This document shows positions 2,283-60,418 of a stretch of 64,000 nucleotides of DNA, one piece after another. The notes below the pieces were generated by a model that was not told the DNA's origin, made no database searches, and saw nothing but the letters and a program-made list of their open reading frames with translations. The stretch covers positions 8,229-72,228 of the IMG/VR virus record IMGVR_UViG_3300047160_005605, one strand, 5' to 3'. A program made the translations under genes and the position numbers. The first letter of the stretch is position 1. Every line of letters starts with the position of its first letter. The stretch is from a virus (taxonomy: Duplodnaviria; Caudoviricetes).

Positions 2283-3224
2283 TTGCCGATGCGAATCAAT
2301 GACGTGGCACCGAAGTTCTTTACGGATGAACTTTTACGGTGCGCCAAACTTGACCGCAACTGGATAGAGGTCATCTCGGGTTTCCCGATGACTCTCCATG
2401 CAAATTACCAGGCGCGAGTCAAGCCGGGTATCAAGACATGGGTAGAGAAGGCGTGGGAGCAAGGATCTGACGCGCTGTCTATGAAGGCGTTGTCTTGGTG
2501 GCTGCTAGATGGCCCAAAGGTCTTTGTACCGACCAAGATACAATGCCAGGCGATGGAGCACATAGAGATTAACCTGCCCGTCGCGGATTACAGCCAGCCC
2601 TATCCCGCCATCATGATTGACCTGCGGAGCATGGGCTATTGTCCATTCGAGAGCGTCCTAGCGTGCCATGACTTCTCCGGAGCGCATTGTGTCATCACCT
2701 GTTGCATCAATTCGCATGACCACCTCAATGATATTGCCACTACGGTTGGCAGGACCGACTGCATGATTGAGGAATCCGTGCGGAAGTTCGACGCTAACAT
2801 AACAGAGGACGAGAGCAGCTTGGCATGCAAAGTGCTGCGGATAGCGCTCAATAGCTGTCTGGCACTGAGCCACTATGGCAATCACATCGAGTACCTCTAC
2901 CCCAAGGAAGTGGACAGCGACCGCAGACTTGCCAGAGAGTACAGCGAGCGTGGCAAGAAGGCACGCCAGCGCCTGTCCCTTGCCGTGCAAAAGATCAGCT
3001 TCGATCAGGAGGTTAGGCTGCACCGTGTAGTCCACAAGCGAGTGGAGCCCGGCGAGCCGACGGGCCGCGAGATGCCCCCGCACTGGCGGTCTGGGCATTG
3101 GGCGATGCAACCCTATGGGCCTACACAGTCGCTCCGCAAGCGAATCCTACGTCCGGGAGTAATGGTTCGCCGGGATCTGTTTCTCGGTGACGATTCTGAT
3201 AGTTCAGCAACCTACCGAGGGTAG
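2283..3224 (+). CDS. hypothetical protein with C-terminal HWRxGHW motif
   Basis: AAGGAG RBS; PPHWRSGHWAMQPYG motif of a type recurrent in uncharacterised phage early proteins. Confidence 0.8.
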   Translation: MPMRINDVAPKFFTDELLRCAKLDRNWIEVISGFPMTLHANYQARVKPGIKTWVEKAWEQGSDALSMKALSWWLLDGPKVFVPTKIQCQAMEHIEINLPVADYSQPYPAIMIDLRSMGYCPFESVLACHDFSGAHCVITCCINSHDHLNDIATTVGRTDCMIEESVRKFDANITEDESSLACKVLRIALNSCLALSHYGNHIEYLYPKEVDSDRRLAREYSERGKKARQRLSLAVQKISFDQEVRLHRVVHKRVEPGEPTGREMPPHWRSGHWAMQPYGPTQSLRKRILRPGVMVRRDLFLGDDSDSSATYRG

Positions 3225-3302: not shown

Positions 3303-3467
3303 ATGACCCCGCGTGAATGGGAGACTTTCTTCGCACTGCTGGAGAAGATCGTCAACGCTCCCGAAGGCACCTATAAAGAGAAGGCTGCTTCCGTGATGCT
3401 TCAAGCCAAGAATCAAGGCTCGGAAACGGAACTCAATGAGTTCGCTTCTTGGTTCCAGGAGGGCTAA
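3303..3467 (+). CDS. small hypothetical protein (54 aa)
   Basis: AGGAGG RBS, ATG 3303; TAATG coupling to the next gene. Confidence 0.6.
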   Translation: MTPREWETFFALLEKIVNAPEGTYKEKAASVMLQAKNQGSETELNEFASWFQEG

Positions 3468-3661
3468 TGGACGAACTACTCAAGCAAGTGGAGCGAGTCT
3501 GGAAAGCCCTCCTCGAGTATGGGCCGCTTGACGATGGCACTCCTCAAGGAAAGGAGCTAGAAGATGCCATCATCGATCTGAGGAAGGCTTCTATCCCTTT
3601 CAAATTGCGAAGGAGTAAGCGTGTTAAGAAACGCCATAACCGAAACCTACGGAGAGGTTGA
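3467..3661 (+). CDS. hypothetical protein
   Basis: Start coupled to the previous stop (TAATG). Confidence 0.6.
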   Translation: MDELLKQVERVWKALLEYGPLDDGTPQGKELEDAIIDLRKASIPFKLRRSKRVKKRHNRNLRRG

Positions 3662-4115
3662 TAAGCTCTTGCACTTCACGGTGCACAAGTTTATCCGTAA
3701 GTATGGCGGGGATTATGATACGCTGAGAGCCGATGCCAACTGGCATTTTCTCTCAGCGTATCTATCCTTCAAGCCATCGAAGTCAAAGTTTTCCACTTGG
3801 GTGAGCTATAGAGTCCACATGGGACTGTTGGCGAGCAAGCGCGACGATAAGAAGCGCGCCCACTATCTCAAGCCGCTACCAACTAAGCTGTACGCTCGCA
3901 CGGAGAGCACTGCAAGGCAGCTTGCGCGGGACTTGTCAGATGATGCCGGCGCGATCATACGCTTGGTGTTGAATATTATCCCTGCCAGCTTCTTTCGACG
4001 GCGGCATAACAAGCGCCAAGCGCTAGTTGAATACCTAACTGGCTTGGGTTGGTCTGAGGCTAAGATCGAGCGTAGCTTCGCCGAGCTAAGAGAGGAGCTA
4101 TGTACTCAAACCTAA
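3621..4115 (+). CDS. compact ECF-like sigma factor
   Basis: Region-2-like SFKPSKSKFSTWVSYRV; region-4-like LGWSEAKIERSFAEL; AAGGAG RBS before GTG. Confidence 0.65.
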   Translation: MLRNAITETYGEVDKLLHFTVHKFIRKYGGDYDTLRADANWHFLSAYLSFKPSKSKFSTWVSYRVHMGLLASKRDDKKRAHYLKPLPTKLYARTESTARQLARDLSDDAGAIIRLVLNIIPASFFRRRHNKRQALVEYLTGLGWSEAKIERSFAELREELCTQT

Positions 4116-5539
4116 TGCGCAGAGCGAGAGGTCTTGGCAATGGTGTCATGCAGTTGGTGAGGTGGACCGATCCTATCACCAACAAGACTATTACCAAGCC
4201 GCATGAGTTTCAAGCATGGGCAGTCCGCAAGCTGCACAGGTGGGGCGGGCGGGGATTGCTTGCCGATGACATGGGTTTGGGCAAGACGGTCGAAGCGCTT
4301 ATCTATGCCCATGAGGTTCCAAAAGCAAGACCCGCTCTAGTTATTTGCCCTGCCTTTCTCAAGTTCAATTGGGAGCGCGAAGCAGCACGCCATGTAGGTA
4401 TGCGAGCGGAGATACTCGACGGGACGAGAGTGCCGAGGAGAGGGATACTCCCCCCAGCACCTTTGTCTATTATCAACTACGAAATACTAGGACCATGGAT
4501 GGAATGGCTGATGGCGATGAAATTCAAGCTTATCATCCTAGACGAGTGCCAGTACGTCAAGAGCCGCAAAGCTAAGAGGACTAGGTATTGCCGACAGCTT
4601 TGCTGGAATGCGCCAAGGGTAATCGCTCTGAGTGGTACGCCGCTCACCAACCGACCCGAAGAGTTGTGGTCGATCCTGAATATGATACGGCCAGACCTCT
4701 ACTCAGAGTTTATGCCGTTCGCGTTCAAATACTGCAAGCCGCAGCATTCGCCGCATGGATGGTTGTTTCCGGGCGCTGACAACCTTGACCACTTGCATCA
4801 CAAGCTGAAAAAGCAGCTTATGATACGCCGGAAGAAAAGCGCCGTCATGCCTTTCTTGCCGAAGAAAGTGCACTCGGTCATACCTGTCAAGATCACCAAC
4901 CTCAAAGAGTATGTCCATGCCAAAGAGGACTTCTTGGGTTGGCTGTACTCTGTGAGTCCCGAGCGTGCACGTACGGCAGCTAGAGCCGAAGGGCTAGCGC
5001 GCTTGGGATACTTGCTCAGGCTCATTGGAGAAGGCAAGCGTCAAGCTGTCTCCAAGTGGATTGAGGACTTCTTAGGCGCAACCGACGATAAGCTCTTAGT
5101 CTTTGGTCGGCATGTTAGCGTAGTCACTGGCCTCCACAATGATTTTCCCAAAGAATCTGTGGTCATCTATGGCGCTGTCTCTAAGAGTGAGCGTAACAAG
5201 CGCGAGCATGAGTTCCAGAACAACCCCAAGATAAGAGTCCTCATAGGCAACATACAAGCTGCTGGCGTAGGTCTAAACCTCACAGCCGCAAGCTATGTAG
5301 GCTTCGCTGAGTATCCCTGGACTCCGGCCGAGCTTAACCAAGCGATAGACAGAACGCACCGAATAGGCCAGACCAAGCAAGTTAGCGTTTACTATCTTAC
5401 TGCCATCAACACCATAGAAGAAAGGATGGTGAAGCTGCTACAAAAGAAGCAAGGGATCTTGAGTTCCATTCTCGACGGGAGAAGGGATCGTTCCGATGTT
5501 AGTGTGTATGACCAACTCATAAAGGAGATGCGAAAGTGA
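4100..5539 (+). CDS. SNF2-family (HARP/SMARCAL1-like) helicase
   Basis: LADDMGLGKT, IILDECQ, LSGTP, AAGVGLNLT and QAIDRTHRIGQ motifs. Confidence 0.93.
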   Translation: MYSNLMRRARGLGNGVMQLVRWTDPITNKTITKPHEFQAWAVRKLHRWGGRGLLADDMGLGKTVEALIYAHEVPKARPALVICPAFLKFNWEREAARHVGMRAEILDGTRVPRRGILPPAPLSIINYEILGPWMEWLMAMKFKLIILDECQYVKSRKAKRTRYCRQLCWNAPRVIALSGTPLTNRPEELWSILNMIRPDLYSEFMPFAFKYCKPQHSPHGWLFPGADNLDHLHHKLKKQLMIRRKKSAVMPFLPKKVHSVIPVKITNLKEYVHAKEDFLGWLYSVSPERARTAARAEGLARLGYLLRLIGEGKRQAVSKWIEDFLGATDDKLLVFGRHVSVVTGLHNDFPKESVVIYGAVSKSERNKREHEFQNNPKIRVLIGNIQAAGVGLNLTAASYVGFAEYPWTPAELNQAIDRTHRIGQTKQVSVYYLTAINTIEERMVKLLQKKQGILSSILDGRRDRSDVSVYDQLIKEMRK

Positions 5540-7863: not shown

Positions 7864-8375
7864 CCCCGTTTATGCCGTGGCAGGAACTGCGTCAGGACAA
7901 GTCCAAGCGTAAGCTTGATCCGCAGGTCAAGGATGTGCTCGATAGCGTCTTGCAGCTTGACTGGCCCGCGGGCAGCGACCAGCAAGTGTTGCCTGTGCTC
8001 ACTAAGAGCTTGCGAGCGTACAAGAGCTTTCGGGAGCAATTCGCAGCGATGGACAAGCGCTTGCGCGAGCGAGCGCTGGCACTCCGGGCAGAAGCGAAGC
8101 AAGCAGATTTGCCAGAACGCAAGACCAAAGAGTTGCACTTGCTCTATCGGCACATACGCCTGATCGAGCACCTCCGCAACTACTTTGCACCAAGCCATAT
8201 GTTTATGAAAATCTGGATGACGCACGTACAGAGAGAAGCCAAGTACAGGGGAAATAACTTACGCAAGCTTGCCTTCTCTACAAAGTCGCCACTTTTCACA
8301 AAGCTAGGGCGACAATGGACTTACGAGTATTGCCATCAGTCTTATTGGTTTGACCAACTTCTCGAAGAACTTTAG
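7860..8375 (+). CDS. hypothetical protein (replication module, between primase and helicase)
   Basis: ORF coupled to the leader ORF; no motif recognised. Confidence 0.7.
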   Translation: MTPFMPWQELRQDKSKRKLDPQVKDVLDSVLQLDWPAGSDQQVLPVLTKSLRAYKSFREQFAAMDKRLRERALALRAEAKQADLPERKTKELHLLYRHIRLIEHLRNYFAPSHMFMKIWMTHVQREAKYRGNNLRKLAFSTKSPLFTKLGRQWTYEYCHQSYWFDQLLEEL

Positions 8376-16612: not shown

Positions 16613-16837
16613 TTGTTACCATCGAAAGAAAATGCCTTGCAAGCGAATGGCGCTTTGCAGAGGATCACCGATGACCACGTGTCGCGGGACTTTACCTTTG
16701 TCCGTGACTTTCTGGAGGCCGCCGAGCGCAAGCTGCCCTATGAGAAGTCCTTCGCCAAGAAGGCGGCCAAGAAGGCGGCCAAGAAGGCGGTCAAGCAGGC
16801 TGCCGAGAAGGGCTTCGGTCTGAGCGAGAAAAAGTGA
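16613..16837 (+). CDS. small basic protein with AKKA repeats
   Basis: AAGGAGG RBS; 12-bp unit GCCAAGAAGGCG x3 at 16754-16789. Confidence 0.6.
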   Translation: MLPSKENALQANGALQRITDDHVSRDFTFVRDFLEAAERKLPYEKSFAKKAAKKAAKKAVKQAAEKGFGLSEKK

Positions 16838-18033
16838 TGAAAGGTTTCTTCCAACCTTCGCAGTTAATCTCTAAGCCCCCTGCCTCCTTGGTTCCGAAGT
16901 GTGGTGCGTGTGGGCTGTTTAAGACGTGCCATTCTCCCAAGATGGAACCGAGCGGCAGGGGGATTAAGAAGATCCTAGTGGTCGGGGAAGCGCCGGGTGC
17001 CACCGAAGATGAAGAGGGGTTGCAATTCGTCGGTGAAGCGGGAGAGACATTAGATAAATACTTCCGCAAATGCGGCATAGACATGCGCAAGGATTGCCTG
17101 ATAACCAATGCCCTCATCTGTCGTCCGCCAGCGAACAAAACACCAACCGACAAGCAGATCGACTACTGCCGGCCCAACCTCCTAAAGACCATGAAGCAAT
17201 ATGATCCGAACATCATCATCTTGCTTGGAGGCGTTGCCACTGAGAGCTTCATAGGTTATTACTGGAAGCAGCATAGCGGGGGGATAGGCCGATGGGCTGG
17301 CTTTATCATACCTTCGTATCATCCTAACGCTTGGGTCTGCCCAACCTATCATCCGTCTTACCTGAACCGCATCAACAACCCCGTGGCAGACTTGCTCTTT
17401 GAGCGACACCTAAGGGCGGCGCTCGCGTGCAAGGGCAAGCCGTGGGATACGATCCCGATGGCGGAAGTCAATCGCATCTATGACGATAGCGAAGCCGCAG
17501 CCGCTATACGCTCATTCTGCAAAGGCCGCTACGCTGCATTTGACTATGAGACGAATATGTTAAAGGCAGACAGCGAGCAAGCGCGCATAGTCTGCGCGTC
17601 TATATCAGATGGTAAGCGCACGATAGCATTCCCATTCGATGGCAAAGTCATCCCAGCAATGAGTGAGTTTGTCATCTCCGATTGCTTGAAGATAGCCGCT
17701 AATCTAAAGTTCGAGACCAGATGGAGTATCGCCAAGCTTGGAATCAGCCCAAGAAATTGGTGGCACGATACGATGTTAGCGGCGCATTGGCTAGACTGCC
17801 GACCAGACATAACCGGATTGAAATTCCAAGCGTATACTCGCCTGGGGGTACTATCCTATGACGATCATATCCGCCCCTTTCTGAGAGAGAGTGAAGGCAA
17901 CAAAGTCAATCGCATTAAGGATATAGCGATGAAAGACTTACTCCTCTACTGCGGAACCGATAGTCTTCTTGAGTACAGGTTGGCATTCAAGCAGAGGGAA
18001 CAACTTGAAACCAGCGACGATGGAAGCGTATAA
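16834..18033 (+). CDS. DNA polymerase N-terminal subunit: family-4 uracil-DNA glycosylase-like domain + 3'-5' exonuclease
   Basis: CGACGL, VGEAPG.EDEEG..FVG.AG, CRP, YHPSY (UDG4); FDYET, NLKFE, DTML, YCGTD (ExoI-III). Confidence 0.9.
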   Translation: MMKGFFQPSQLISKPPASLVPKCGACGLFKTCHSPKMEPSGRGIKKILVVGEAPGATEDEEGLQFVGEAGETLDKYFRKCGIDMRKDCLITNALICRPPANKTPTDKQIDYCRPNLLKTMKQYDPNIIILLGGVATESFIGYYWKQHSGGIGRWAGFIIPSYHPNAWVCPTYHPSYLNRINNPVADLLFERHLRAALACKGKPWDTIPMAEVNRIYDDSEAAAAIRSFCKGRYAAFDYETNMLKADSEQARIVCASISDGKRTIAFPFDGKVIPAMSEFVISDCLKIAANLKFETRWSIAKLGISPRNWWHDTMLAAHWLDCRPDITGLKFQAYTRLGVLSYDDHIRPFLRESEGNKVNRIKDIAMKDLLLYCGTDSLLEYRLAFKQREQLETSDDGSV

Positions 18034-19393
18034 GCTGCTGCACGATGGGTCGATAGCGCTCGCCAGAGTGGAAGCCAATGGCATGCGCATCGACATGCGA
18101 CACCTAGAGAACACAGCAAGGCGAGCGACGTTCCGTGCCAAGTTCCTCACTGAGCTATTAGAGAAGGACCCTATCTATGGTAAGTGGCGTGCGCGCTTTG
18201 GTCGCAGTGCGAGCCTCACCAAGCGCCAGCAATTCGCCTATGTGCTGTTTGATATCCTCAAGTATGAGTGCCGAGCGAGAACAGCACCGACGGCAGCGTA
18301 TCCTTTGGGCCAACCCAAGACCGATAAGAAAAGCCTAGCCCACATAGACTCGGAGTTCGTGCAAGACTACTTTCGCCTGATGAAATACCTTAGGATTAAG
18401 AGCACCTTCTTAGAGGGGATAAAGAGAGAAGTGGTCAATGGCTTCTTGCATCCCATCCAGAATCTTAACATAGCGCGCACTTACAGGGGATCGAGCGATC
18501 ACCCCAACGGACAAAACTTCCCCGTGCGCGATCCTGAAATGGGCAAGATGATCCGTCAGTGCATCATCCCGCGCAATAAGAACTACGTCGGCGTGGAGTT
18601 TGACTTCAAAGGTATAGAGGTCGCGGTCGCTGCTTGCTACTGCAAGGATCCCAATCTCATATCCTATGTGAGCGATCCGTCAAAGGATATGCACCGAGAT
18701 ATGGCGGCGCAATGCTATATGTTGCCGCCAGACAAGGTGAGCAAGTACCTAAGATACTGTGCCAAAAATCAATTCGTCTTTCCGCAATTCTATGGCGACT
18801 TCTATCCTCACTGCGCCAGAGCGCTTTGGGAATCTCTAGACCGCGAGCCAGAAGTCAAGGGTTATCTTGCGAGCAAAGGCATCCGCAAGCTTGGCAAATG
18901 TGATCCTCAAATAGACCCCGTGAAGGGAACCTTTGAATATCATATCAAAGAGGTAGAAGCAGACTTTTGGGGTCGCAGGTTTGAGAAGTACGCTCAGTGG
19001 AAGAAGCGACAGTGGGAGCAATACCAAGAAGAAGGTGGGTTTAACTTCTTCACGGGCTTTGCCGAGACGGGCATATTCTCGCGCAATGACGTTACCAATC
19101 ATCGGATTCAAGGTAGCGCTTTTCATATCCTCTTGTGGACTCTGATACAGACCGACAAGTGGCTGCGGCAACGGAGAATGCGCAGCAAGATCATCAACCA
19201 GATCCATGACAGTATGATGATGGACGTGCATAGGAGCGAGTACCAAGAAGTGCTTGCCAAAGTGATCCGCATAGCTACTATCGAAGTGCGCGAGCATTGG
19301 CCTTGGATTATCGTGCCTCTAACCATTGAGGTCGAGAAGTACAAGACCAATTGGCATAACAAGAGACCCGTTAAACTGGAGGCTGTAGCATGA
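18005..19393 (+). CDS. polA: family A DNA polymerase catalytic subunit
   Basis: TTG start after GAGGGA; RGSSDHPNGQN, motif A EFDFKGIE, motif B RYCAKNQFVFPQFYG, IQGSA, motif C QIHDS. Confidence 0.92.
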   Translation: MKPATMEAYKLLHDGSIALARVEANGMRIDMRHLENTARRATFRAKFLTELLEKDPIYGKWRARFGRSASLTKRQQFAYVLFDILKYECRARTAPTAAYPLGQPKTDKKSLAHIDSEFVQDYFRLMKYLRIKSTFLEGIKREVVNGFLHPIQNLNIARTYRGSSDHPNGQNFPVRDPEMGKMIRQCIIPRNKNYVGVEFDFKGIEVAVAACYCKDPNLISYVSDPSKDMHRDMAAQCYMLPPDKVSKYLRYCAKNQFVFPQFYGDFYPHCARALWESLDREPEVKGYLASKGIRKLGKCDPQIDPVKGTFEYHIKEVEADFWGRRFEKYAQWKKRQWEQYQEEGGFNFFTGFAETGIFSRNDVTNHRIQGSAFHILLWTLIQTDKWLRQRRMRSKIINQIHDSMMMDVHRSEYQEVLAKVIRIATIEVREHWPWIIVPLTIEVEKYKTNWHNKRPVKLEAVA

Positions 19394-56145: not shown

Positions 56146-56342
56146 TTTAACTCCACTGAGCGCATCTCGCGCCGGACTATCGCAATCGCCTCCTTTTGAC
56201 TGAATTGCTCGCCATGTCTCGTCCAGATCGCAGGACCGTCTCTTGGGCGTGAGAAGATCCTGAACTCGAACTTTCGCAGCGTTGTATCATCGGGATGTAT
56301 ATCACGGTTTTCAGTGGTAAGGTCAGATGACTGCGCCACCAC
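56139..56342 (-). CDS. hypothetical protein
   Basis: GGAGG RBS; lies between portal and head morphogenesis genes. Confidence 0.5.
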   Translation of the reverse strand: MVAQSSDLTTENRDIHPDDTTLRKFEFRIFSRPRDGPAIWTRHGEQFSQKEAIAIVRREMRSVELKC

Positions 56343-57930
56343 TAGCCTCCCTTATTCCTCTGGCGACGGCCCGTGAGGCGTCGATAGCCGCCGTTGCCCT
56401 AGTAGAACCAGGTCCCGTTCCCGTGATGCCCTTCTGTGGCTTTTGCTGCTTGCCCTTGCCGTTAGTACCACCACCACCATTAGTGCCTTGCAAGAGTTGA
56501 GCATTCATCTTCTTCATTTGGGTCTGGAAGTCGCCTGACTCTAGGATCGCTTCGGCTTGCTCGGGCGTCATCCCAAGCAGCACGGTAAAGAACTCATAGG
56601 GAGGGACAAGGTTATACGCTCCCGAAGTGACGTACTGAACGATGGCTTGCGTGCGCGTGATTCCTAAATTAGCTTTGTCTTGGTCAGTAGGCTTATTAAG
56701 ATCGGGCCAGTTCACTATCACTCTGTCATCGGGTTCGGGCAGAACGCCTGTGTAGATAAGCCGATTAGCAAACGGCTTAATCAGCATCGGCGTAAGGTAT
56801 TTGTGTTGCCGCTTGCGCATTCTTTCGTTCCACGTCCTTTTATTCATCGCCGACGCTAGCTTGCCTTCTTCCATACCAAGAAGTAAAGGCAGAGGGCAAC
56901 CGATGCTCGCCGCGATAGCTTGCAATTGTTCGTTGATGTGATAGCGCGGCGAGGCTACCTGCGGAGCAAGCGACTTCGCTTTCATGCCAACCATCGGCAG
57001 GTAACGCATCAACCCTGCCTGGAATGCTTCTAATTCCTGTCGCGTGCCTTCACGGTCAAATTCTGCTTCGCTCGCTATCTCAGGGTCAATCTCAAAAGAA
57101 TAGCCCGGGAAAGCACCCTTCCAGAACATTTCGGCGCTGCCGCCAAGCAGCTTGCGCAAGTCTATGAGTCTATTCAACACCGGCCGCATTCTCGGTACGC
57201 CAAAGACTTCACCCGACTTGCGACAATCGGCGACATGGATAATGCGCGACCAGTGCACCCTGCGAAAGTAATTGCCGGCGACTAGCACGGCTTCGGGAAT
57301 GCCCGTTGTCACATCTACAAAGCGCACGGAATAGAAGTTTGGCGTCGCATAGCGCGGGTTGTAGCGGTCCTGCTCGAAGGCTTGCACTCTGACTTGGGTT
57401 TCGTCAAAAGCCCGCAAGTACACTATGCCCATATTGGGATCGGCTTTGCCATTGGGCCTGCCTTGCTCGTCTATGCCGTCTACAGGGTCCCATAGCTCTT
57501 TGCCGTCATTGAAGCCGATGAGAATCACCCCGTAGAAGCCGATCCCGCTAAGCTGGTCGATGCGATGGAGATAATGGTAGATATCGTGCTGGTCGCACAG
57601 ATCGCGCCAAGCACCCTCAAACTTCGTTTCCTTCCTGCCTTCGCTCTCCACTAGCTCGGGATCCTCTGCCCAACATTCGTCAGGCATGATATCGACTACG
57701 CGCGTGGCGATGCCTTCCCGGTCATACATACGGCGATACTGATAAGGCGTGAACTCGATGGGATAGCCGCACTCACGGTCGATATCGTGCTTGAGGTCGA
57801 TCATACGGTCGAGAAGAGATGTCCGCGCGATCAGCGAGTAGGTCTGGAAGAATGATTCGTAGTTGTTGACCATCTCGTTTTTGGTCAAGCGCTCAAGGGG
57901 AATAGCAGGAAGCATCTTGGGACGTGGCAT
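56323..57930 (-). CDS. portal protein (DUF1073/HI1409-like)
   Basis: Y.R.GIA.RVVD..P...W, IHWSRIIH, G.P.MRPV.NRL.DL.K..GG.AEMFW motifs; follows TerL. Confidence 0.88.
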   Translation of the reverse strand: MPRPKMLPAIPLERLTKNEMVNNYESFFQTYSLIARTSLLDRMIDLKHDIDRECGYPIEFTPYQYRRMYDREGIATRVVDIMPDECWAEDPELVESEGRKETKFEGAWRDLCDQHDIYHYLHRIDQLSGIGFYGVILIGFNDGKELWDPVDGIDEQGRPNGKADPNMGIVYLRAFDETQVRVQAFEQDRYNPRYATPNFYSVRFVDVTTGIPEAVLVAGNYFRRVHWSRIIHVADCRKSGEVFGVPRMRPVLNRLIDLRKLLGGSAEMFWKGAFPGYSFEIDPEIASEAEFDREGTRQELEAFQAGLMRYLPMVGMKAKSLAPQVASPRYHINEQLQAIAASIGCPLPLLLGMEEGKLASAMNKRTWNERMRKRQHKYLTPMLIKPFANRLIYTGVLPEPDDRVIVNWPDLNKPTDQDKANLGITRTQAIVQYVTSGAYNLVPPYEFFTVLLGMTPEQAEAILESGDFQTQMKKMNAQLLQGTNGGGGTNGKGKQQKPQKGITGTGPGSTRATAAIDASRAVARGIREASGGAVI

Positions 57931-57938
57931 AACTCACC

Positions 57939-60166
57939 CTATAAAGGACCTACTCGCAAGCGGGCTTTGCTGAGTATTGTAAAGGCACCCGAAGCAGCGT
58001 CAACTTGGTCAGCATACTTCCCCACTGGGAAATAGGTCAACTCGCTGATGAACTCCTCAATCCAGGGCGCACCTTCGATAAGGTAGACGTTGCCCATATT
58101 GACCTGCGTACTGAATGGATCGGCACGAATCACCTTGCTTCCCTGCGAGCCCGTGGGTCGGACAATGCGCGTATGGTATCCCGACAACCTTCTGGCCGTT
58201 CCTTCTGCTGATTCTTTGCCTCCTGATCCTGGCTCTTGCTCGATTCCGACGTAGACTAGCTTACCGTCATTCTTGGCAGTCTGCAAGATGAGTTTCTCCC
58301 TGATCGCCGAATCAACCTGTACTCTGATGATATCGAGCACCCAATAGACGATTTCCATCGTCACGCCCATGAGACAGCCTACGGTATAGGCTCCTCCGCC
58401 CATGGTATTGTGAACGAGTACCCCATTGGCAAAAAATTCATGCTCTTTTCTGACCTCAAGATTGTAGACGGGCACGCTTCCTTGCCTGACGGCCGCATTG
58501 ATGCGAACAATATCGGATTGCACACACGTCGGTATGCCGAGACTCGAAAGTTTCGCCGCAGTACGCACAGACATATTGTTGGTAAGTACGATTCTGCCAA
58601 AGCTTCCGCGCCGCCCTACTGAGCATCTTTCTAAAGGCAGGTTGCTTTGTGTGGATAGCACGATGCTTCTTTCGCGGGAGGCATTCAAGGTTCGACAGAG
58701 CGTGGTTATCGTGGTTTCCGTCCTTGTGATGGATATGATGGCCGTCGGGTATATCGCCTCGAAAAAATCTCCACTTAGCTTGCTGCAAGGTCTCGTTACG
58801 GTATGAGCCGTTGAAGTAGCGCATGGTCTCGAAATACTTCCTCCCTGGGCGTCGGCGGTACCTGATGCCGTTGAACACAATAATCTCCGTGTCCTTATAC
58901 GCTTTCGGTCCTCGCATAGCTGTCTCCTCGAAGTTAGAGCACGGTGGTTATCACGAAGGCTATCAATCGCCGTCCAGGTATCTCCTCCCGTGTAAAGAGG
59001 ATGATCGTTGGTACCCCAGAGAACCACTCCATTGCTGAATAAAACCCCCCATACCTCATCGACAAAGCCAGAAACCCCTGCCCAATGAACTTCCTGATAA
59101 CCGTTGCGAGTTAGGACAAGATCACCAGTCCGAATGCTCGCAATAGGTTTTTGACCATAGGGTGTATCAATTAGTGTACATTCGTACAGGCAAGCCGCCT
59201 TGTCCCAATACCTCACCATACGACGGAAGTTCTTGGGGCGAATGCCATAGCGAAATCTGTCCGTCTTGAACATGCCCCCGCCGGGAGGCGAAGGCGTCTG
59301 CTGAAACTGTCCTGCATAGCCGTAAGCGCCTAATTCTCTATAAGCCTCTCTGAGGATAGACTTAGAGAGCCGTATCGGATCTAAAAGGTTGTCTGTGTAG
59401 TGTTCTTTTGCCGAGGGTGGGGAAATATCTTCGCTCAATTCGGCCGGTAAGCAGATATGCCGGAGACCAACCTGTTCTTCTTCCGTATCAGCAAGTTGCC
59501 AGACGGGTCGTTCTGGTGTAGTCTCTGCATTATCAAAATCAAAGGTGATACGGCTTTGTCCACTTTCCTTTGACTGAGTTGCTGGCCCATCCATTGGTTG
59601 ACCTCCTTGAGTCTTGCCTCTGATAAGACTTCAAGCGGATCTATCGGATCGTCCACTATCAAGAAATGGCCGTGCATCCCGAGAACACTACCGCCTACAC
59701 CGACGGAGAATCTATCCCCTTGCTTGTAATTGGCGAAGTAGCCCTTCGTATCTTGGTCACTTCTAAGCTTTATGTCTGGGAACGAGTTGCGGTACCTATC
59801 TGAGCGTATCACATCCCGGCATTTGCGGCTTAGGTCTAGCGCCAATCTATCAGCATAGGACCCGCAGATGAAGCGACAATGCGGCATGCGCGTCCAACAC
59901 CAAGCAGGGAACATGATAGAGCACACTGTGCTCTTAGTAGTTCCCGGAGGGACGTTAATGAGGAGGTCGTACTTACGGGGCAGCCCTCTAAACACGCGAT
60001 CGGCGAGAGTTTGCAACTCTTGACAGATGTAGGGGATGTGCCAGTTCCAGACGGGTTTTTCGGAGGAGACTTCATACCAGAACTCCTTCACAAAGTCGAA
60101 GAGGGACTCCCGACATATAGAGGCGAGTAAATCCTTTTCTTCCAGCTGGTAGTTCTTATGCGCCAT
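57939..60166 (-). CDS. terL: terminase large subunit, in two frames (59435..60166 then 57939..59594) and intein-containing
   Basis: Walker A INVPPGTTKST, Walker B LIVDDP, coupling motif IMQRLH; nuclease RYWDKA, EQEPGSGGK, YADQVDA; frame change needed between 59500 and 59462. Confidence 0.9.
58407..59192 (-). mobile_element. intein (262 aa) in the TerL nuclease domain
   Basis: Block A CLYECTLIDT, block B TNDHPL, blocks F/G VYNLEV..HEFFANGVLVHN, +1 Thr; excision restores WDKAA-TMGGGAYTVG. Confidence 0.93.
58456..58917 (-). CDS. HNH homing endonuclease nested in an alternative frame within the intein
   Basis: GAGGAG RBS 6 nt before ATG; HIHHKDGNHDNHALSNLECL..KKH HNH motif; CAYC...CSHQC zinc finger. 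Confidence 0.88.
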   Translation of the reverse strand: MRGPKAYKDTEIIVFNGIRYRRRPGRKYFETMRYFNGSYRNETLQQAKWRFFRGDIPDGHHIHHKDGNHDNHALSNLECLPRKKHRAIHTKQPAFRKMLSRAARKLWQNRTYQQYVCAYCGETFESRHTDVCAIRYCSHQCGRQARKRARLQS

Positions 60167-60169
60167 GAT

Positions 60170-60418
60170 TCACTGCGCAATAACATCCATACCGATGAGG
60201 ATGATTACTTCCAGGTCGCCAAGACCCGCCTTTTTAAGCGCTTCCTGGATATTTGCTTTCAGAGCGTCTACGCCGCAGTCTATGACTTCTTGGGCGTATT
60301 CGTCTCTGACGGATAAGATCAAAGCCCGCGTCTTGTCCGTGACGTGCACCATGCTACCAAGCCACGGGACGGCCGTAGCTATCCGAGAGAACTCGCGGCG
60401 TGATAAGTGTACCGACAT
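60170..60418 (-). CDS. hypothetical protein with twin-arginine-like N-terminus
   Basis: GGAGG RBS; MSVHLSRREF. Confidence 0.55.
   Translation of the reverse strand: MSVHLSRREFSRIATAVPWLGSMVHVTDKTRALILSVRDEYAQEVIDCGVDALKANIQEALKKAGLGDLEVIILIGMDVIAQ

Follow-up and report, generated by a model that had tools for sequence, protein, structure and literature searches.

An intein in a phage terminase gene with a probable homing endonuclease gene overprinted in a second frame

Introduction

Can an intein and its homing endonuclease be two separate genes that occupy one stretch of DNA? The question is raised by the terL gene (large subunit of the terminase, TerL) of the virus record IMGVR_UViG_3300047160_005605, in which an insert interrupts the nuclease domain of TerL and a second reading frame of the same strand appears to encode an HNH nuclease. 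The record is one 72,228-bp contig with 52.9% G+C and is evidently a phage genome. We analyzed 64,000 nt of it (positions 8,229 to 72,228; hereafter the window), and all positions below are those of the window. A preliminary description, made from the sequence alone, had proposed a dual-coded selfish element in which splicing domain and nuclease are carried in separate frames. We show that the predicted folds, the relatives of both parts, the selection on the two frames and the intein-free TerL relatives agree with that proposal. The locus most probably holds a mobile class-1 intein in the active-site strand of the TerL nuclease, whose homing nuclease is encoded by a gene of its own, overprinted at an offset of +2 on the same strand.

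Results

The insert in TerL has the sequence and the predicted fold of a class-1 intein

The minus strand carries a portal gene (57930..56323), a 551-aa open reading frame (ORF; 59594..57939) and a 243-aa ORF (60166..59435), which Pfam and PHROGs both assign to the ATPase domain of TerL. Within the 551-aa ORF the insert begins with Cys1 (59192..59190; CLYEC), contains block B as GTNDHP (T61-N-D-H64) and ends in VLVHN, with Thr as the +1 residue. Cys1, T61 and H64 were invariant across the 28 relatives aligned, and N262, whose codon ends at 58407, was invariant in the same alignment. The flanks are VRYWDKAA upstream and TMGGGAYTV downstream, and the insert splits a strand of the TerL nuclease between WDKAA and T. 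The Asp of WDKAA belongs to the first strand of the RNase H-like nuclease domain, and immediately behind the intein the match to Terminase_6C resumes at profile position 10. All coordinates and motifs that the preliminary description had assigned to the intein were recovered.

On the 551-aa ORF, Pfam placed Hint_2 at residues 135-174 (9.8e-07), the C-terminal block of Intein_splicing at 371-396 and Terminase_6C at 400-535, and PHROGs agreed. In the AlphaFold2 (AF2) model of the intein, the predicted local distance difference test (pLDDT) score exceeded 90 at residues 1-95 and 230-262 and was 90-98 over the N-terminal splicing region, and it fell below 50 at residues 106-224 of the slot (∼125 residues), which are predicted to be disordered and have no recognisable fold. 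The best PDB match of the model was the gp41-1 mini-intein (6qaz), with a template modelling (TM) score of 0.85 on target length; Foldseek returned the gp41-1, MchDnaB-1 and RecA mini-inteins at E values of 6e-7 to 1e-5. The slot had been described as Ser/Thr/Arg-rich filler, and this was borne out: it is stop-free in the intein frame, and Ser, Thr and Arg account for 39% of its residues vs. 19% in the splicing parts. Rfam gave no match, so there was no sign of a group I or group II intron, and a blastn search of the terL region against GenBank phages returned no match. Judged by its sequence and its modelled fold, the insert is a class-1 intein with a Hint fold, and it is predicted to splice.

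An HNH_3 endonuclease gene occupies the slot in another frame

The DNA of the slot also encodes, on the same strand, a 153-aa protein in a frame offset by +2 from that of the intein (677 mod 3 = 2), which corresponds to 'frame 3' in the terms of the literature (bioRxiv 10.1101/2025.01.02.630785). This frame is closed by a TAA 11 codons upstream of the ATG. Its TGA stop falls within the block F codons (N-L-E-V), so that the last ∼17 codons of the HNH gene, together with its stop, overlap the first codons of the C-terminal splicing region.

In the alternate frame Pfam detected HNH_3 (2.2e-11, residues 49-86), and PHROGs returned phrog_15471 'HNH endonuclease' (3e-18). The residues that are invariant in the family (H63, H64, N76, H85 and four Cys) are all present. 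The AF2 model had a pLDDT of 87.6, and its top Foldseek match was the homing nickase I-HmuI (1u3e; probability 1.0, E 4e-3), with a TM score of only 0.36 because the protein is extended. Only marginal zinc-finger matches were found when the sequence profile was compared with the PDB. By motif and modelled fold the product is an HNH_3, I-HmuI-like homing endonuclease, and its activity is predicted. The earlier reading of this ORF as an HNH plus zinc-finger nuclease with its own GAGGAG and ATG is in keeping with the sequence, Pfam and PHROGs.

A Shine-Dalgarno-like core preceded 53% of the ORFs of at least 100 aa in this phage vs. 16% of all ATGs. A promoter scan detected no sigma-70-like site upstream of the HNH gene and no terminator, with the proviso that sigma-70 may not be the promoter type of the host. 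Translation of the nuclease likely proceeds by internal initiation on the late terL transcript. The features of the region are listed in Table 1.

Table 1. Features of the terL region and of the overprinted endonuclease gene (window positions)
Feature	Position	Strand	Basis
Class-1 intein, TerL frame, 262 aa	58407..59192	-	Sequence, Hint_2, Intein_splicing, AF2, PDB match
N-terminal splicing region, intein residues 1-91, blocks A and B; TerL frame only	58918..59192	-	AF2, invariant residues
Filler, intein residues ∼92-228, same DNA as the HNH gene	58509..58917	-	AF2, composition, substitutions in relatives
C-terminal splicing region, blocks F and G, VLVHN end	58407..58508	-	Sequence, AF2
Predicted HNH_3 plus zinc-ribbon endonuclease gene, 153 aa	58456..58917; ATG 58917..58915, TGA 58458..58456	-	Pfam, PHROGs, AF2, Foldseek
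GAGGAG Shine-Dalgarno-like motif, 6-nt spacer to the HNH ATG	58924..58929	-	Sequence
N-extein junction W-D-K-A-A	59193..59207	-	Sequence, Terminase_6C profile, relatives
C-extein, remaining TerL nuclease domain, starts TMGGGAYTVG	57939..58406	-	Terminase_6C 1.8e-06, phrog_38 3.2e-30
TerL ATPase domain, separate 243-aa ORF in another frame than the remaining terL	59435..60166	-	phrog_4758 7.7e-47, phrog_38 4.9e-45
-1 frame break zone in terL, between ..GNLLIRKK and VGLRHICLPAEL	59465..59495	-	Comparison with relatives

Relatives of the nuclease are nested in terminase inteins at the same offset

The survey of homologues that the preliminary description had recommended was made as a profile search of IMG/VR, which yielded 479 confirmed HNH relatives. 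The best 80 were examined: 64 (55 unique) were nested in a longer ORF at the same offset, 15 were free-standing, one lay at another offset and none was in frame. A search for longer (fused or in-frame) HNH relatives found none, which is weak evidence. The sampled host ORFs encode TerL, of either the Terminase_6 or the Terminase_3 type, and match Hint and Intein_splicing; the free-standing relatives sit between terL and the portal gene. Start codons were nearly always ATG, with a Shine-Dalgarno-like motif 6-10 nt upstream in 23 of 47 cases. The stop lay 13-30 codons upstream of the intein end and was usually formed from the conserved block F codons for V-Y-N/D or V-E/D.

The nearest element is L012, with an HNH protein 48% identical to that of the window; conservation between the two starts exactly at the start codon. 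L012 and L013 (45-48% identical in the HNH) use the same site, WDKAA^C...HN^T (^, insertion junction), and their host frame is open. The host frame is also open in L007, a relative at a different site. Across the HNH family the insertion sites included WDKA^, HDD^CD, DH^C.DA.RY and the Walker B CDE, all of them catalytic motifs, and at least four TerL sites are occupied.

Single relatives showed further arrangements. L001 (1711-5139), found with the TerL ORF as query, encodes a 1142-aa TerL that is interrupted twice at Walker B (..AW ^ CDEL ^ CKW..), by inteins separated by only four residues, each with its own frame +2 HNH ORF (2370-3188 and 3459-4181). The sole exception in the census is L085 (880-3156), with an HNH_3 gene (2459-2968) at offset +1 in a TerL intein whose host frame is open. 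L026 (1030-3314) uses three different frames, one for the N part of TerL plus the N-intein, one for the HNH gene and one for the C-intein plus the C part of TerL; on its sequence it looks like a split-intein ('fractured gene') form or a decayed copy of the family. L023 (659-3133) has a TerL mini-intein near the C-terminus and a free-standing HNH relative directly downstream, and could, by its layout, be an intermediate between the free-standing and nested states. L064 (3-3368) encodes a 1122-aa TerL with a canonical LAGLIDADG intein (Hom_end match, residues 210-271) as well as another intein that carries the HNH out of frame. L117 is a 745-aa TerL relative with an intein-like insert at another site, upstream of WDKA (..PYGY ^ CTPGF..).

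A hidden frame +2 HNH was also found in isolates, namely Clostridium phage phiCDHM19, Tetrasphaera phage TJE1 and Rhodobacteraceae phage LS06-2018-MD07. In their GenBank records (L174, LK985322 443-2842; L175, HQ225832 13379-15565; and L176, OP947163 20470-22518, respectively) one long terL and no HNH gene are annotated, and the HNH relative lies beneath at offset +2. Since these isolates propagate with this layout in their sole annotated terL, such precursors must give a working terminase.

The two frames are present in separate assemblies

An assembly artefact, in which two compensating indels mask an ordinary in-frame HNH intein, was a possibility raised a priori by the preliminary description, and nothing further spoke for it. 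The stretch 57900-60200 was present in at least 22 soil-metagenome runs from 17 studies. Logan contigs of four other soil runs showed 0 substitutions and 0 gaps over this stretch and spanned both ends of the HNH ORF; the four assemblies are separate, although the runs may come from a common sampling campaign and rare variants do not show in contigs. Compensating indels are therefore ruled out by four identical contig sets. Two ENA assemblies contain the identical HNH protein, and their gene caller retained the HNH gene and cut terL around it. An artefact is also at odds with the stop that closes the HNH frame upstream of its ATG, with the recurrence of the same offset at 64 independent loci and in finished isolate genomes, and with the failure of any search to find an in-frame relative. 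We consider such an artefact to have next to no probability.

Selection acts on both frames across the family

The preliminary description had put the chance of a second open frame at about 0.0006. The arithmetic is correct for uniform codons, but the figure does not hold once the HNH protein is taken as given. When the HNH protein was held constant and its synonymous codons were shuffled or redrawn, the intein frame of the window element stayed stop-free in 12-23% of trials (P = 0.12-0.23). The window alone is therefore weak evidence, and family-wide data bear the argument.

In thirteen divergent elements the host frame had no stop at all (each P 0 to 0.2), against 5-24 in the third frame. 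Stops per 100 codons of the host-type frame amounted to 0.10 in nested genes vs. 4.77 in free-standing genes, and those of the other (third) frame to 8.3 in nested and 10.8 in free-standing genes. The depletion of stops from the host frame of nested genes shows that selection maintains an open intein frame. A coding sequence yields the fewest stops in the frame at the preferred offset, which is also the offset that needs the fewest changes.

Substitutions were counted in six independent close pairs. In the flanks (splicing domains and exteins) they fell on host codon positions 1, 2 and 3 in the proportion 54/32/185, and in the slot in the proportion 49/170/59, where host position 2 is position 3 of the HNH codons. 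The switch of periodicity between flanks and slot gave a chi-square of 159 (p = 2e-35). The periodicity in the slot shows that the HNH protein is under purifying selection and that the linker is constrained only to lack stops.

The HNH ORF of the window might nevertheless be an inactive relic, and the element a fixed mini-intein with a long junk linker that has lost homing. The window copy has no close relatives, which leaves selection on it not measurable, its open frame is not significant when taken alone, and its HNH protein is the shortest of the family (153 aa vs. 168-272 aa), with a single zinc ribbon. However, all of the family-invariant catalytic and zinc-binding residues are kept, the ORF is intact with its Shine-Dalgarno motif and ATG, and the conservation with L012 begins at the start codon. 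The model of the HNH protein is confident, and in the relatives the HNH frame is clearly under purifying selection. A relic is thus unlikely.

The intein is sporadic among TerL relatives

Among TerL relatives with 50-66% identity in the ATPase part, all 76 in which the site was readable had an uninterrupted R[YF]WDKA[GA]T motif and no insert. The sporadic occurrence of the insert is what would be expected if it homes.

HNH proteins assist cos cleavage in HK97-like phages. The nested HNH might accordingly serve not, or not only, homing, but act as a terminase-associated packaging nuclease. Every relative found is nested in terL or lies between terL and the portal gene, and the authors of the Brucella phage paper proposed the same link (PMC4422536). 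In contrast, fold and family are those of the I-HmuI-type homing nickases (HNH_3) rather than of the small PF01844 packaging HNH proteins. The absence of the insert from the 76 closest readable TerL relatives indicates that it is dispensable for that terminase family, and insertions at several catalytic motifs of unrelated TerL families are typical of homing elements. A packaging role in place of, or beside, homing is very improbable on this evidence.

The terL gene of the window has a frame break upstream of the intein

The ATPase ORF ends in ..GNLLIRKKNRLVSGISAYRPN-stop, and the conserved continuation VGLRHICLPAEL lies in the -1 frame. Over 59435-59600 (minus strand) the -1 offset separates the ATPase motif ..HQNDPSGNLLIRKK from VGLRHICLPAEL, and terL was contiguous in all 80 relatives of the ATPase part (48-66% identical). 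Contigs of three other soil runs contained the identical break. No X XXY YYZ slippery heptamer was seen by eye at the break, and no homopolymer; the downstream RNA fold was no better than that of shuffled sequences (z = 0.38). Close relatives of the ATPase ORF that share the break were not found, the next best match being only 61% identical. The TerL of L021 was considered as a guide to the position of the break and was rejected, since its ATPase part is unrelated.

A strong AAGGAGG with a 7-nt spacer precedes an ATG at 59594 (59592-59611, minus strand); at this ATG, within the ATPase ORF, the nuclease-frame ORF starts. At the ATPase stop, a start and a stop codon overlap as TTGA (59435-59438, minus strand). 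Either could permit separate translation of the nuclease part of TerL, giving a two-piece terminase. Elsewhere in the window, a DNA polymerase I-like gene (16834-19393, plus strand) is split into two overlapping ORFs, 16834..18033 and 17969..19393, with an offset of +1, that is, in the direction opposite to that of the terL break.

The break may reflect a terminase made in two pieces, an unusual recoding event or a defective genome. If terL were a pseudogene of a defective phage or prophage remnant, intein and HNH would be dead cargo here. The different frames of the ATPase and nuclease parts, without a slippery heptamer or a stable downstream structure, the contiguity of terL in 80 of 80 relatives, and a second essential gene, polA, that is seemingly also split by one base are consistent with decay. 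Conversely, contigs from several soil samples and studies share this sequence with its break; the intein and HNH frames are intact, as is the portal gene next to terL; and the AAGGAGG-7 nt-ATG and the TTGA overlap would permit a terminase in two pieces. A pseudogene has a low probability in our estimate.

Discussion

We propose that the terL element of the window is a mobile intein with an overprinted homing nuclease. Ribosomes on terL would read through the slot and produce a ∼135-residue unstructured and unconstrained linker between the two Hint halves, which would fold and splice, so that WDKAA is joined to TMGGG and TerL is restored. Other ribosomes would initiate at the internal GAGGAG/ATG and make a 153-aa I-HmuI-like HNH protein with a C-terminal zinc ribbon, ending at the TGA formed by block F codons. 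In a mixed infection the HNH protein would nick or cut an intein-free terL near the WDKA[AG]T codons, and recombinational repair would copy the intein and the nuclease gene together.

Several points weigh against this proposal. As set out above, the open intein frame of the window copy is not significant on its own, and the evidence for selection is drawn from other family members and not from the window copy. The frame break in terL raises doubt whether full-length TerL is made here. The identities of HNH and splicing parts across the family are weakly correlated (rho 0.12; 216 of 2000 permutations reach this value in a Mantel test), so that co-inheritance of the two as one unit is tentative at depth. 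All nested and free-standing relatives found lie in or beside terL, a distribution that also fits a role related to packaging. Finally, we infer precursor splicing, internal initiation, target cleavage and homing, both here and for all HNH_3-type members.

The HNH, whose clade was found only within terL inteins or immediately downstream of terL, might also have been recruited as a terminase-associated nuclease, with overprinting on a stop-free linker serving as a stable, selected co-expression with TerL, in this phage beside a terminase itself made in two frames; we regard such recruitment as very improbable. The proposal of a mobile intein with its own overprinted nuclease gene has the consequence that (i) a single stretch of DNA can hold an intein and its homing nuclease as two genes; and (ii) the view that inteins gain nucleases by capturing free-standing homing endonuclease genes is supported. 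Taken together, the free-standing genes, L023, L026 and the nested genes form a series that fits, by its sequence layouts, the published proposal of an invasion of inteins by free-standing endonuclease genes. The arrangement also affects annotation: gene callers split terL or overlook the nuclease, as in the Clostridioides difficile phage and the Tetrasphaera phage with an unannotated HNH.

Comparison with known systems

The preliminary description had suspected that alternate-frame endonucleases were already in the literature, and rightly so: the layout is published (PMC4422536; bioRxiv 10.1101/2025.01.02.630785; and, without an intein, PMC11855218). Annotations of Brucella phage genomes have recorded, from 2012 on, both 'intein present' in terL and an HNH gene nested there. 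As in the window, the terL intein of Brucella phages Tb and Pr (Perisivirus; JN939331 ORF07/ORF08; Virol J 2015, PMC4422536) contains an HNH gene on the same strand in another frame, and the TerL frame is open. The Brucella phage HNH also has zinc ribbons, but it belongs to PF01844, with the zinc ribbons first and the HNH last, whereas that of the window is HNH_3; ORF08 of phage Tb aligns to the window HNH over the motif only. The offset is +1 in the Brucella phages vs. +2 in the window, and their host is an alphaproteobacterium.

Actinophage inteins, many of them in terL, were reported with an endonuclease VII-like gene in 'frame 3' (Gosselin, Arsenault, Gogarten, 2025; bioRxiv 10.1101/2025.01.02.630785). 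That preprint also describes antisense LAGLIDADG and Vsr-like genes, calls such elements rare and proposes the capture of free-standing homing endonuclease genes. The actinophage elements resemble that of the window in that a same-strand 'frame 3' nuclease lies in the endonuclease slot and the in-frame translation of the slot is unstructured. They differ in that they are endonuclease VII-like and were reported as rare and from actinophages only, whereas the clade of the window is HNH_3 and the out-of-frame form is its majority state in environmental phages. The window HNH had no match at E <= 1e-6 in the published actinophage sets (Mycobacterium and Gordonia phages).

The 'hidden' HNH of the ShiLan type (Arsenault et al., Genes 2025, PMC11855218) is, as in the window, a frame-3 HNH with zinc fingers in an insertion that is stop-free in the host frame. 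Its host gene is, in contrast, an actinophage DNA methylase, and the insertion has no detectable splicing domain, whereas complete Hint halves flank the slot in the window. The dCTP deaminase intein of cyanophage vB_AphaS-CL131 (PMC6293099) combines Hint and HNH_3 as in the window, and its splicing was seen in E. coli; however, its nuclease is an in-frame intein domain in another extein, and the window HNH is out of frame in TerL. Fractured genes (Dassa et al., 2009, PMC2677866), which L026 resembles, have a separately translated homing endonuclease gene that separates the N part of an intein from its C part. Their host gene is cut into two ORFs and spliced in trans, and their nuclease is Vsr-like, whereas the intein frame of the window is continuous. 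I-HmuI of Bacillus phage SPO1 (1u3e) shares with the window HNH an HNH_3-type core and an extended DNA-binding tail, but it is intron-encoded, 23% identical over 109 columns and devoid of the zinc ribbon of the window protein.

In the literature searched, we found no description of an out-of-frame HNH_3 form and no inteins linked to phiCDHM19 or TJE1. Three points were not met with there: that the HNH_3 form is common, that the offset with the fewest stops is preferred, and that block F supplies the stop of the nuclease. They leave the published picture unchanged. The basic layout is already known, and the element of the window is a further case of it with a different nuclease family.

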